A stretch of 33,448 nucleotides of DNA from a virus (lineage: Duplodnaviria; Heunggongvirae; Uroviricota; Caudoviricetes): IMG/VR virus record IMGVR_UViG_648028025_000008, one strand, 5' to 3'. Of the stretch, positions 18,001 through 21,000 are shown piece after piece. Position 1 is the stretch's first letter. Every line of letters begins with the position of its first letter. The position numbers are program-made.

Positions 18001-21000
18001 CGTTCCTGATGTCGTACTTCACTCAGACCACTGACGGCAGAGTGAATCTGATGCATCACAGGAAAGCCGGAAACACGAAGCTGGGGGAGTTCGGCGATTA
18101 CGGTAACGACTGGCAGACGCTGGAGCTGGTGTTCACCGCCGGCAGTGCCACGGTTACTCCGAAACTGAATGGAGTGGCTGGCCCGGCATTCCAGGTTATA
18201 AAAGACAGTCTGACACTGGGACTGAATGCGCTGACGCTGACGGATGTTACAAAAAATGCAGCGTATGGCGTTGAGATAGAAAGTCTGGTGCTGGAGATAA
18301 ATGCACCGGCATCATCATAAAAAGTGAGCCAGTCAAATGGAAGGTATCGTTAAACTCACCGGTAGTGTCAGTGGGTCGTCTGAGACGCCTGCATGAGTTA
18401 TCAGAGCCATCAGTAGTTAACTGGTGGCTTTTTTATTGTTGTCAGCTTCCGGATAACGGGAGACGGGGTATGTACCAGATGGAAAAAATCACAACAGGTG
18501 TGTCATACACCACGTCAGCGGTAGGGACGGGATACTGGTTACTGCAACTGCTGGACAAAGTCTCTCCGTCCCAGTGGGTGGCAATAGGTGTACTGGGGAG
18601 TCTGCTGTTTGGCCTGCTGACGTATCTGACTAACCTGTATTTCAAAATCAGGGAGGACCGCCGTAAGACGGCGCGGGGAGACTAAAGCGATGAAGAAAAA
18701 ATACGAACTGGTTGTTAAAGAGATAAATAATTACCCGGATAAGATTGCTGTTACTGTGGCACTTGAAATTGGCGGGCATCCGTCGTTGTTGTTGCCACAT
18801 GTGGCGATTAGTCTTGACCGTACTGAAGGTGCCACGCTGGAGTTTTACGAAGCTGAGGCGAAAAAGCAGGCGAAGCAGTTTTTCATGGATGTTGCTGCCG
18901 GGTTATGTGAAGGGGATGGTCCGTTACCGGAAAAGCGTCCCGTAATTTTAGAGGCGCAGGATGTGTTGATAACCTACAGAGGAAAACTACCGGGAATAAT
19001 TACGGGTTCTCTGAAGACTCCACCGCTGGCCTGAAGACTTAACATATCCAGGGATTTGAAATCGATAAACCCTGATAAATATCCATGAACGCAAAAATCA
19101 GATACGGCCTGTCGGCTGCCGTTCTGGCGCTGATTGCCGCAGGTGCGCCTGCGCCTGAAATCCTCGACCAGTTTCTGGATGAAAAGGAAGGTAACCACAC
19201 CACAGCATACCGTGATGGTGCGGGTATCTGGACCATCTGCCGTGGAGCCACCCGGGTGGATGGTAAGCCTGTTATTCCTGGCATGAAGCTGTCGAAGGAA
19301 AAATGCGACCGGGTTAACGCCATTGAGCGTGATAAGGCGCTGGCATGGGTGGAGAAAAACATCAGAGTGCCACTGACCGAACCCCAGAAAGCGGGGATTG
19401 CGTCATTCTGTCCGTACAACATTGGCCCCGGTAAGTGTTTCCCGTCGACGTTTTACAGACGGATTAATGCAGGAGATCGAAAAGGTGCCTGCGAAGCTAT
19501 TCGCTGGTGGATTAAGGACGGTGGCAGGGACTGCCGTATTCGCTCAAATAACTGTTACGGTCAGGTATCCCGTCGTGACCAGGAGAGCGCGCTGGCGTGC
19601 TGGGGAATCGACAGATAAGCAGAATATTTTGCTGAAAAATGAGGTTTGCTTACATGGATGGATAACACGAAATCCTGCAAATTGGCAAAATGTAAGTGAA
19701 TAAAGTCAAAACAGTTGTTTAACACTCAGGCACCGTAATGATGCCTTTGTCATTTCTGCGCATCTCACGCGCATCTCACAACACAGAACCTTTCAGGATG
19801 ACCCTTGAGGATACCGGTTTGGCTGTCGGTGCCTTTCTGTGGGCTGGATTCCTGTGAGACAAGGTTCATCACTAAAAGGAAATAACCGATGAATATGATG
19901 GCCGTGCCGTTTCACGGCAACTCTCTTTATGTAGTTAACCATAATGGCGAACCATACGTTCCCATGAAACCTGTCGTTGCGGGGATGGGGCTGGCCTGGC
20001 AATCACAGTTGGCTAAGTTAAGACAGCGTTTTGCGTCAACTATAACGGAAATCGTTATGGTTGCTGAGGATGGGAAACAACGCAATATGGTGTCCATGCC
20101 ACTTCGAAAACTTGCCGGCTGGCTACAAACCATTAATCCCAACAAAGTAAAACCCGAAATCCGCGATAAGGTCATCCGGTATCAGGAAGAGTGCGACGAT
20201 GTTCTTTACGAGTACTGGACGAAGGGTTTTGTCGTTAATCCCCGTAAAATGAGCGTGATGGAAGAACTCAACCAGGCTTGTGCTGACATGAAACGGGATA
20301 AAAACATTGCCAGTGTGTTTGCTACCGGGCTGAATGAGTGGAAACAGGTTAAAGCCGCGCATGTATCAAAAATCCGTACGCTGGTAAATGAAGCGAATAT
20401 GAGGTAGCCTGAGTTTAACGGACACTCCTTCCTGAAATAGAATGGCATCAGAAGGAGCTAATAATGAGCAGAAAAACCCAACGTTACTCTAAAGAGTTCA
20501 AAGCCGAAGCTGTCAGAACGGTTCTTGAAAATCAACTTTCGATCAGTGAAGGCGCTTCCCGATTATCTCTTCCTGAAGGCACTTTAGGACAATGGGTTAC
20601 CGCCGCCAGAAAAGGGCTCGGTACTCCTGGTTCCCGCACGGTGGCTGAACTGGAATCTGAAATTCTGCAACTGCGTAAGGCGTTAAATGAAGCTCGCCTT
20701 GAGCGAGATATATTAAAAAAAGCAACAGCGTATTTTGCACAGGAGTCGCTGAAAAATACGCGTTAATCGAACAATGGCGACAACAATTTCCCATTGAAGC
20801 GATGTGTCAGGTATTTGGTGTATCCAGGAGCGGTTATTACAACTGGGTACAGCATGAACCCTCAGACAGAAAACAAAGTGATGAGCGGCTAAAACTGGAG
20901 ATTAAGGTGGCACATATCCGCACTCGCGAAACATATGGAACCCGGCGGCTCCAGACGGAGCTGGCAGAGAATGGCATCATCGTTGGTCGTGACCGACTGG

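Follow-up and report, generated by a model that had tools for sequence, protein, structure and literature searches.

Organization of the lysis locus

The window, by which we mean the whole stretch of 33,448 nt analysed here, shows one mismatch over its full length when compared with E. coli O26 RM10386, and is a decayed, effector-carrying E. coli O26 prophage. The features in and around its lysis genes are as follows.

18403..18431, + strand: terminator-like hairpin (12-bp stem, then a T-run) between the genes for the NanS-p esterase and the holin, from a consensus scan only
18470..18685, + strand: S21-type class II holin (predicted pinholin), 71 aa, dual starts M1/M4
18690..19034, + strand: YdfR/DUF1327 family gene, 114 aa
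18690..18911, + strand: DUF1327 core domain, residues 1-74 of YdfR, from alignments and an AlphaFold2 model
18912..19031, + strand: C-terminal module of YdfR, residues 75-114 (EKRPVILEAQDVLITYRGKLPGIITGSLKTPP), predicted disordered, exchangeable
19085..19618, + strand: R21-type SAR endolysin, 177 aa
19619..19888, + strand: R-ant spacer, 270 bp, conserved in BP-4795 and 933W
19758..19779, + strand: 11-bp tandem duplication, an exact repeat of GCGCATCTCAC (x2) inside the R-ant spacer
19889..20407, + strand: truncated antirepressor gene ant
20400..21663, + strand: IS600 (IS3 family), 1,264 bp, with orfA/orfB at 20464..21620
21723..21992, + strand: tail-fibre C-terminal-domain gene (Pfam PF06820, E=9e-36), right-hand edge of a deletion

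The ORF, the spacer, its 11-bp duplication and ant all lie where the initial annotation had placed them, and its sequence-level statements were confirmed throughout. Its assignment of the cassette to the pinholin/SAR-endolysin type is likewise upheld by Pfam matches, the dual start of the holin and the E/D/T triad of the endolysin. The holin gene matches Pfam PF04971 Phage_holin_2_1 ('Bacteriophage P21 holin S') with E=1.7e-32 and 111.7 bits (cut-off 26), is classed as holin in PHROG and carries the RefSeq name 'class II holin family protein'. Its product begins with the dual start M1/M4 (MYQMEK), has a strongly hydrophobic second transmembrane segment (Kyte-Doolittle maximum 2.14, residues 37-53) and is 76% identical to K-12 EssQ; these are the traits of an S21-type pinholin, and pinhole formation is predicted from its sequence. 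The endolysin matches Pfam PF00959 Phage_lysozyme (E=1.5e-24, 87.1 bits, cut-off 22.3), is 89% identical to K-12 RrrQ, and combines a hydrophobic, Gly/Ala-rich N-terminal segment (residues 5-27) with the triad E35-x8-D44-x5-T50 as read from the translation, which identifies it as an R21-type SAR endolysin. The 25 nt 5' of its start contain no Shine-Dalgarno sequence.

The 114-residue ORF belongs to the YdfR family

The ORF between holin and endolysin runs on the + strand from an ATG at 18690 to a TGA ending at 19034, separated from the holin stop (18685) by 4 nt and from the endolysin ATG (19085) by 50 nt, with a Shine-Dalgarno sequence (GGGGAGA) 7 nt 5' of its start. The HMM search of its product returned Pfam PF07041 (DUF1327) with E=7.4e-43 and 145.1 bits (cut-off 25) over residues 1-112; PHROG 406 matched with E=7e-63, RefSeq holds the protein as WP_000731221.1, 'YdfR family protein', and no NCBIfam model was matched. 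The gene is an ordinary member of a widespread, already annotated family, and blastn with it found matches in 3,158 of the 5,426 complete E. coli genomes (58%), many O26 genomes carrying an intact, 100% identical copy. When 1.84 billion cluster representatives were searched exhaustively with phmmer, only 52 matched at E≤1e-3; a scan of genome contigs with a narrow peptide pattern returned only E. ruysiae and E. albertii, and IMG/VR scans with two distant members (P0160 and P0165) as queries yielded no matches. Pairwise dN/dS is about 0.32 for ydfR, compared with 0.10 and 0.08 for holin and lysozyme, and the GC contents of the three genes are 47%, 52% and 55%, respectively. Family members range from 71 to 287 aa with shuffled C-terminal modules. 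Many of the database entries are fragments or frameshifted variants.

Position in the lysis cassette and optional presence

The initial annotation had called the ORF unexpected. The family and its position are in fact annotated in thousands of E. coli genomes, K-12 included, where the Qin operon reads essQ-ydfR-rrrQ-rzpQ/rzoQ. The same slot is filled in BP-4795, mEp460, Evi, phage 86 and PhiR12_1, all of them plaque-forming or inducible phages, in the order holin, a gap of 3-4 nt, DUF1327, lysozyme, an optional ant and Rz; ydfR lies between holin and endolysin in 101 phage records and in more than 1,200 complete E. coli genomes. Essentially all close relatives among 96 fetched loci are arranged as holin>ydfR>lys>(ant)>Rz. 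The ORF is therefore found at the same position in functional cassettes, the circumstance that was to count against its being unusual, although no role has been assigned to it there.

Phage 933W, in which R follows S after a 4-nt gap, as had been stated for cassettes of this type, lacks ydfR, and the gene is therefore an optional insert. In an alignment of the junction the ydfR ATG takes the position of the 933W R ATG, behind an identical GGGGAGAG. The place between S21-type holin and R21-type lysozyme is typical of the family but not universal, as distant members lie between tail genes M and L (P0160), upstream of tail gene J (P0165) and, for a P0156-like gene, after Rz/Rz1. Members among tail genes or behind Rz argue against a dedicated lysis role.

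Loss of the spanin genes through IS600

Rz and Rz1 are absent from the window, as the initial annotation had noted, and no pair had been overlooked: tblastn with three spanin sequences (BP-4795 Rz, K-12 RzpQ and RzoQ) against the whole window gave chance-level matches only, and a six-frame lipobox scan found no ORF in 19600..19900 and none that was credible in 18300-22100, leaving no trace of a spanin remnant. The presence of an antirepressor instead of spanins, which had been presented as a peculiarity, proved to be ordinary, R, 270-bp spacer, ant and Rz/Rz1 being the normal order in 933W and BP-4795. The native ant gene (Pfam P22_AR_N, E=1.1e-45) is 100% identical to BP-4795 Ant (189 aa) over residues 1-171; these codons end at 20401, and the last codon and the stop are supplied by IS600. 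The homology to BP-4795 breaks at 20401/20402, inside ant and exactly at the element, which RefSeq annotates at 20400..21663 as 'IS3-like element IS600 family transposase' and whose terminal inverted repeats occupy 20400-20426 and 21637-21663. The triplets on either side of it, ATA and ATT, are not the same; a target-site duplication is thus lacking, which fits an IS-associated deletion. In an intact relative, Stx1a_11KH263, some 24 kb separate the lysis cassette from the homologue, further downstream, of the tail-fibre gene at 21723..21992. The window lacks Rz/Rz1 because ant was cut short by IS600 at codon 171 and roughly 24 kb of late genes disappeared, among them the spanins and all morphogenesis genes. 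The window is not a spanin-less cassette, and its missing spanins are a routine outcome of IS-mediated prophage decay. That the cassette is spanin-less by design or disrupts the outer membrane by another route, the ORF replacing Rz/Rz1, is a reading implied by the initial annotation; it would account for the absence of the pair but is highly improbable given the deletion, the comparison with BP-4795 and 933W, which refutes it, a YdfR protein with no transmembrane segment, signal sequence or lipobox, and the Rz gene found in the fetched relatives whose sequence reaches past the lysozyme, the window-type loci (L002, L009) being the only ones that stop at a truncated ant.

The spacer itself is 100% identical in BP-4795 and of equal length in 933W. 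A 22-mer spanning the 11-bp duplication is identical in 21 of 97 fetched loci, namely 933W, BP-4795 and 19 others, so the duplication is an inherited spacer feature and a local peculiarity is ruled out. As a candidate regulatory RNA, the spacer gave no Rfam match and an unexceptional fold z-score of -0.63.

Domain structure of YdfR

The family shares a DUF1327 core of about 72 aa, with the motif Y5-E-L-x-V ... R44-x-E-G-x-x-L-E-F-Y-E-x-x-A, which is present in the window protein. Alignments that took in the minimal members of 71-76 aa identify Y5, E6, L7, V9, N14, V21, R44, E46, G47, L50, E51, F52, Y53, E54 and A57 as near-invariant. Over residues 1-74 the window protein and K-12 YdfR are 43% identical. 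AlphaFold2 modelled these residues alone with a pLDDT of 88 and a pTM of 0.77, as a three-stranded antiparallel sheet with one helix (βββα); in the full-length model the N-terminal domain is good and residues 75-114, with pLDDT below 50, are predicted to be disordered. With a core pI of 5.6 (4.6-5.6 across members) and no hydrophobic window reaching 1.6, YdfR is a soluble, acidic domain protein.

Residues 75-114 form a module that neither K-12 YdfR nor the 71-76 aa members possess; it is joined to a different N-terminus in one relative (P0151) and is followed by coiled-coil extensions in forms of 176-287 aa. The Pfam matches of these long forms are DUF1327 and noise-level coiled coils, and fused domains gave no hint of function. 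The structure search did not produce an informative relative: solved structures reached E=1.2 at best by sequence, and Foldseek against BFVD and PDB returned nothing at E≤0.001. A dsRBD-like fold, which would be α-β-β-β-α and carry basic RNA-contact motifs, was considered and rejected. With the confident domain model, Foldseek against PDB gave only E≥0.18 and the earlier signal was not reproduced; YdfR has no N-terminal helix and its domain is acidic, and Pfam dsrm did not match even at E≤10.

Although the prophage is decayed and fragments and frameshifted variants are common in the family, the Pfam match, a dN/dS of 0.32, the strong Shine-Dalgarno sequence, the intact 100% identical copies in O26 genomes, the confident domain model and the purification of overproduced K-12 YdfR as a stable protein (PMC13232886) make it extremely unlikely that this is a chance frame or a remnant without function.

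A possible link to RNase E

The only experimental lead to the function of YdfR is RNase E binding, known from the K-12 homologue (43% identical over the domain) by two-hybrid assay and by co-purification from overproducing cells, and carried over to the window protein by analogy. In K-12 YdfR, residues 1-72 mediate binding to the catalytic N-terminal half of RNase E: the clone ydfR(1-72) came out of a two-hybrid screen three times, the full-length protein also scored in two-hybrid assays with Rne1-597, and Strep-YdfR co-eluted Rne1-598-FLAG (PMC13232886). RNA co-purified with YdfR as well (PMC13232886) and may be bound indirectly, since the domain is acidic. Overexpression of the K-12 protein was not toxic, caused no growth defect and changed very few transcripts (PMC13232886).

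The explanation that we prefer overall, with a probability of roughly 0.55, combines an optional YdfR accessory gene, a guess at RNase E as its target and spanin loss caused by IS600. In this explanation ydfR is an optional accessory gene found in lambdoid coliphages and encoding a small, soluble protein; it has been inserted at the junction of an S21-type pinholin and an R21-type SAR endolysin, where it has taken the ribosome-binding site used by R in 933W. The protein would be synthesised late, alongside the lysis proteins and from the Q-dependent transcript, and its acidic βββα domain most likely works by binding other proteins in the cytoplasm. It stands outside the core lysis machinery, because host lysis occurs whether or not a phage carries ydfR and distant members occupy other late-operon slots. 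Since the sole partner demonstrated by experiment, for residues 1-72 of the K-12 protein, is the catalytic half of RNase E, our best guess, offered tentatively, is that YdfR modulates RNase E, along with RNA decay, in the late phase of infection. The domain varies widely, from 37% to 100% identity between cassettes, against at least 75% for the holins and at least 89% for the lysozymes, and such variability is surprising in a protein that binds a strongly conserved host enzyme. Less probable still is the reading that YdfR is either a new late effector of lambdoid and Stx phages, one that binds the catalytic half of RNase E and tunes how the long late transcript (lysis, morphogenesis and, in Stx phages, stx genes) decays or is processed, or a cytoplasmic timing regulator of a new kind, specific to cassettes of pinholin and SAR endolysin. 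Many Stx phages carry ydfR in their late transcript, 3' of stx. RNase E binding, if it matters during induction, could change late-mRNA stability and hence toxin and phage yield.

Alternative roles in lysis timing or as cargo

That ydfR lies almost exclusively beside the holin in E. coli relatives would fit a lysis-related role equally well. YdfR might be a cytoplasmic regulator of lysis timing, either through antiholin-like binding to the C-terminal tail of the holin or in cis, by displacing R from its strong holin-coupled ribosome-binding site and thereby lowering endolysin levels. In every relative examined from E. coli or a coliphage the gene follows an S21-type holin by 3-4 nt, and it uses the Shine-Dalgarno sequence of 933W R, R itself being left with no recognisable one in cassettes that contain ydfR. 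The ydfR stop and rrrQ start overlap (ATGA) in K-12, so that translation of R is coupled there to that of YdfR. Rare in-frame holin-YdfR fusions (P0003, P0073 and others) point the same way, but the loss of 1 nt in a G/A run accounts for them, and they may be defects. What makes a timing function rather unlikely is that 933W and phage 21 lyse without ydfR, that distant members sit among tail genes and after Rz, that overexpression in K-12 left growth unaffected, and that YdfR and holin alleles do not co-vary, the holin and YdfR of Evi being 94% and 37% identical and those of another locus (L005) 93% and 55%. Soluble lysis modulators acting on holins do have precedents, T4 RIII and P1 LydB among them. 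A further one is ORF52 of Salmonella phage BSPM4, a small accessory protein that tunes lysis timing (PMC11657625).

We judge it about equally improbable that YdfR is moron-type cargo with a benefit outside the lytic programme, such as superinfection exclusion or an anti-phage or anti-defence activity, sometimes accompanied by a convergent small partner gene. Presence or absence of the gene differs between similar cassettes (933W vs BP-4795), its GC content lies below that of both flanking genes, its slot is hypervariable and modular with forms from 71 to 287 aa, and it occurs in several typical late-operon moron slots. A small ORF on the opposite strand follows ydfR in five contexts, and in Evi and one further locus (L090) ydfR and a partner ORF (the partners 85% identical) have travelled together between two slots. 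However, the four families of partner ORFs are mutually dissimilar, and the window, BP-4795, K-12 and mEp460 have no partner. Polymorphism and composition are those of a moron, but its own promoter and terminator were not found: a consensus scan, itself weak evidence, detected no + strand sigma-70-like promoter 5' of ydfR and no terminator after it, and the gene is embedded in the late transcript and tightly coupled to the holin gene. Neither the window protein nor K-12 YdfR nor any of four long forms matched a PADLOC model (E≤0.1), and ydfR of K-12 is essentially unexpressed under standard growth conditions (PMC13232886).

Between these alternatives, the balance of evidence tilts to an accessory gene that is dispensable and moron-like. 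The initial annotation, which had suggested a lysis regulator or a moron in a cassette without spanins, is partly supported in its interpretation.

Comparison with known systems

Small phage proteins that target host RNase E are known in T4 Srd, T7 gp0.7 and phiKZ Dip, of which Srd, like K-12 YdfR, binds the catalytic N-terminal half of the enzyme (PMC4980113). RapZ is a further binder of the RNase E N-terminal domain. Their likeness to YdfR is a functional analogy only; homology was neither detected nor expected, and the timing of these phage effectors is unlike that of a late lysis-cassette gene. The accessory lysis regulators BSPM4 ORF52, T4 RIII and P1 LydB have no sequence or structural relation to YdfR either. 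Such regulators are encoded with, or act on, the holin. Overexpressed YdfR is non-toxic.

Closer counterparts are found among the lambdoid cassettes. YdfR of the K-12 Qin prophage (b1555, P76160) has the DUF1327 family and the holin/lysozyme slot in common with the window protein. It is 103 aa long, and its C-terminal tail, for which a helical structure has been predicted (PMC13232886), is unrelated to the 'EKRPVILEAQ...' module of the window. The ATGA overlap with rrrQ contrasts with the 50-nt gap that precedes R in the window, and Qin retains the spanins that the window has lost. ORF47 of BP-4795 (YP_001449284.1) is 95.6% identical to the window YdfR, and S-YdfR-R-spacer-ant is collinear in the two, the duplication-bearing spacer included. 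BP-4795, however, is an intact Stx1 phage, in which the full ant is followed by a 48-aa ORF, by Rz, with an embedded Rz1 as we read its +1 frame, and then by terminase and morphogenesis genes; in the window everything after the truncated ant in this order has been replaced by IS600. The cassette of 933W (S, R, ant, Rz/Rz1, bor) shares with the window the holin and endolysin families, the 270-bp spacer and the 11-bp duplication, and likewise places ant between R and Rz. The comparison with 933W, which had been proposed at the outset, marks ydfR as the optional element: in 933W the GGGGAGAG ribosome-binding site is used by R, and in the window that same site serves ydfR.

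The ydfR gene in the lysis cassette

The 114-aa ORF lies exactly where the initial annotation had placed it, between the holin gene (S) and the endolysin gene (R):

18470..18685: P21-type class II holin (S) with a MYQMEK dual start, upstream of ydfR (PF04971, E=1.7e-32)
18690 (ATG) to 19034 (TGA), + strand: ydfR, 114 aa by translation
19085..19618: phage lysozyme, R21-type SAR endolysin (R), downstream of ydfR (PF00959, E=1.5e-24)

The ORF starts 4 nt past the holin stop codon, preceded by a GGGGAGA Shine-Dalgarno motif, and ends 50 nt before the endolysin ATG (19085). The endolysin has a Gly/Ala-rich, hydrophobic N terminus and a triad (E35-x8-D44-x5-T50) typical of R21-type SAR endolysins. 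Between nanS-p and the holin gene (18403-18431), within the Q-antiterminated late transcript, is a strong terminator-like hairpin (12-bp stem and T-run).

Judged by its profile matches, the ORF is a YdfR/DUF1327 protein: it scored 145 bits against PF07041 (Pfam cut-off 25, E=7e-43) and matched PHROG 406 (E=7e-63), which is labelled "unknown function". In Escherichia coli O26 strain RM10386, which differs from the window at one position of 33,448 nt, RefSeq names it "YdfR family protein" (WP_000731221.1). With only the 345-nt gene as query, blastn hit 3,158 of 5,426 complete E. coli genomes, 1,257 of them at a query coverage of at least 80%, and tblastn recovered 101 phage records carrying the gene, every one a coliphage. 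The family is small: phmmer, run exhaustively against 1.84 billion cluster representatives, returned 52 matches at E<=1e-3.

The gene had been called unexpected; it is instead a known, widely annotated accessory gene at its usual position. The cryptic prophage Qin of E. coli K-12 has the order essQ-ydfR-rrrQ-rzpQ/rzoQ, its holin and lysozyme being 76% and 89% identical to those of the window. The intact phages BP-4795, mEp460, Evi, Stx2 phage 86 and PhiR12_1 share an S21-type holin, a 3-4 nt gap, DUF1327 and an R21-type lysozyme, with the spanin genes Rz/Rz1 farther downstream in each, and the order holin, ydfR, lysozyme, (antirepressor), Rz is shared by essentially all close relatives among 96 fetched loci. 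Phage 933W, in contrast, has no ydfR, and R follows S after 4 nt. The 933W-type cassette was therefore a correct reference point for the initial annotation, but it represents one of two common variants, the ydfR-bearing cassette being the other. The GC content of ydfR is 47%, versus 52% for the holin gene and 55% for the lysozyme gene.

When the junctions were aligned, the ydfR start codon occupied the site of the 933W R start codon behind the same GGGGAGAG. In 933W (5026-5050 of the fetched locus) R uses this GGGGAGAG, which lies inside the 3' end of S, whereas in the window it serves ydfR. In ydfR-carrying cassettes the sequence 5' of R is its own and contains no recognisable Shine-Dalgarno motif (window 19060-19084, aatcgataaaccctgataaatatccATG), and in K-12 Qin the stop codon of ydfR and the start codon of rrrQ overlap (ATGA). 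The ydfR insert may therefore alter the amount of endolysin made. In-frame holin-YdfR fusion proteins, candidate functional or defective forms, also occur in public assemblies (P0003, P0073 with 13 members, P0104 and P0108); from the mEp460 sequence we infer that the P0073 type arose when the holin gene lost 1 nt from the GGGGAGAG run at its 3' end.

An IS600-associated deletion accounts for the missing spanins

As initially described, R is followed by a 270-bp spacer with an 11-bp tandem duplication (19758..19779) and an antirepressor gene (ant), and Rz/Rz1 are missing: tblastn of the whole window with BP-4795 Rz and K-12 RzpQ/RzoQ gave chance-level matches only, and no lipobox ORF was found in any frame of the spacer. 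The suggestion that ant stands in place of the spanins did not hold, since R, a 270-bp spacer, ant and Rz/Rz1 is the normal order in 933W and BP-4795. The window and BP-4795 spacers are 100% identical, and the duplicated 22-nt sequence is also found in 933W, BP-4795 and 19 other loci. Homology to BP-4795 ends within ant at 20401/20402, retaining residues 1-171 of 189 at 100% identity. Two features lie at or beyond this break:

20400..21663: IS600, 1,264 bp, with terminal inverted repeats; its left end is the homology break in ant
21723-21992: tail-fibre C-terminal-domain protein (PF06820)

The latter begins MNILKKIMQRLCGCGK and fits a relaxed lipobox-like pattern (L-C-G-C); as a PF06820 protein it was rejected as a spanin.

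The triplets flanking IS600 differ (ATA vs ATT), hence there is no 3-bp target-site duplication, the pattern expected of an IS-associated deletion. IS600 joins ant codon 171 to the stretch just upstream of the tail-fibre gene, which is followed by the type III effector genes nleA, nleH1-2, nleF, nleG and espM1. In the intact relative Stx1a_11KH263 approximately 24 kb separate the lysis cassette from the downstream homologue of this right flank, and approximately 24 kb of late genes are absent from the window by comparison. The break at IS600 and the missing DNA thus identify a decayed O26 prophage. The segment from int to Q, two tRNAs, nanS-p and S-ydfR-R-ant' remain, but Rz/Rz1 and every gene for packaging and morphogenesis have gone; the IS600-associated deletion explains why the spanins are absent.

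Between Q and nanS-p (15138-16329), the stx site of Stx phages, stx is absent, and the interval holds tRNA-Ile, tRNA-Arg, a TerB-family pseudogene, a DUF3927 gene and an STnc100 sRNA match (16157-16329). The early region carries DicF sRNA beside dicB (4537-4588, - strand), a sok/hokD type I toxin-antitoxin locus (11705-11854, + strand) and the adhesin gene paa (10758-11516, + strand).

A modular protein in a variable slot

The 114-aa protein lacks both transmembrane segments and a signal sequence (highest 17-residue Kyte-Doolittle value 1.51). Its conserved core comprises residues 1-74, the shortest members being 71-76 aa, and is acidic in every member examined (pI 4.6-5.6); in the AlphaFold2 model a single long helix packs against an antiparallel sheet of three strands (pLDDT 88 when the domain is modelled by itself), and residues 76-113 are predicted to be disordered. 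Residues 75-114 form an exchangeable module, found behind an unrelated N terminus in the family protein P0151, and optional coiled-coil extensions lengthen some forms to 176-287 aa. Identity between cassettes ranges over 37-100% for the YdfR slot, by far the most variable of the three, compared with 75-100% for the holin and 89-100% for the lysozyme. The 196-aa variant P0001 has most of the N-terminal domain duplicated internally in tandem, adding evidence for a recombinationally active slot. Pairwise dN/dS, over non-independent pairs of shallow divergence, was approximately 0.32 for ydfR versus 0.10 for holin and 0.08 for lysozyme at the same loci, which shows purifying selection and little beyond that. 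Among loci L006-L085 with at least 85% protein identity, dS was approximately 0.05 for ydfR versus 0.24-0.26 for holin and 0.21-0.32 for lysozyme, which could reflect recent spread of an allele across cassette backgrounds or an artefact of the identity filter.

The initial annotation, which offered a lysis regulator or a moron as possible roles, is partly supported in its interpretation. Being tightly coupled to the holin gene and having captured the ribosome-binding site of R, the gene might act on lysis timing in cis or in trans, yet a lysis-timing role seems unlikely: the lack of ydfR in 933W makes it dispensable, YdfR allele type does not follow holin allele type, and divergent members lie outside the S-R slot entirely. 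In a 6.4-Mb genome tail genes M and L flank P0160; P0165 immediately precedes the tail-tip gene J, and a P0156-like gene directly follows Rz/Rz1 remnants. We consider a moron or defence gene equally doubtful; PADLOC and NCBIfam gave no match.

These divergent members outside the holin-endolysin slot are minimal DUF1327 genes (71-76 aa), at L091 4001-4219, L093 1128-1358 (also L094-L096) and L090 1229-1441. A convergent small ORF (78-104 aa) follows the DUF1327 gene in five contexts:

L087 2744-3040, - strand: convergent partner ORF
L090 1469-1765, - strand: convergent partner ORF
L088 4317-4631, - strand: convergent partner ORF
L089 2958-3218, - strand: convergent partner ORF
L093 1374-1610, - strand: convergent partner ORF

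No sequence similarity was detectable among the four partner families, and the window has no partner ORF. The Evi and L090 partners are 85% identical although the pair occupies different slots, thus DUF1327 and its partner behave as a mobile two-gene module.

YdfR as a candidate RNase E-binding protein

Searches for a role of the protein were negative: sequence comparison found no relative of solved structure, Foldseek against BFVD and PDB returned nothing at E<=0.001, and Pfam searches of the long forms yielded no informative domain. A lead comes from K-12 YdfR (Göpel et al., RNA Biol 2026, PMC13232886), for which a ydfR(1-72) clone was recovered three times from a two-hybrid library screen, the full-length protein gave a two-hybrid signal with Rne(1-597), Rne(1-598)-FLAG co-eluted with Strep-YdfR, and RNA co-purified with YdfR. 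Overexpressing YdfR caused no toxicity and altered few transcripts, and the authors treated the genes flanking ydfR as function-unknown. Binding maps to the conserved core, over which the K-12 and window proteins share 43% identity. Our best mechanistic guess, tentative at a probability of about 0.3 and resting on one study of this homologue, is that YdfR would be a late-expressed cytoplasmic protein that binds the catalytic half of RNase E. Precedents for phage proteins directed at RNase E are T7 gp0.7, T4 Srd and phiKZ Dip, of which T4 Srd likewise binds the catalytic half (PMC4980113).
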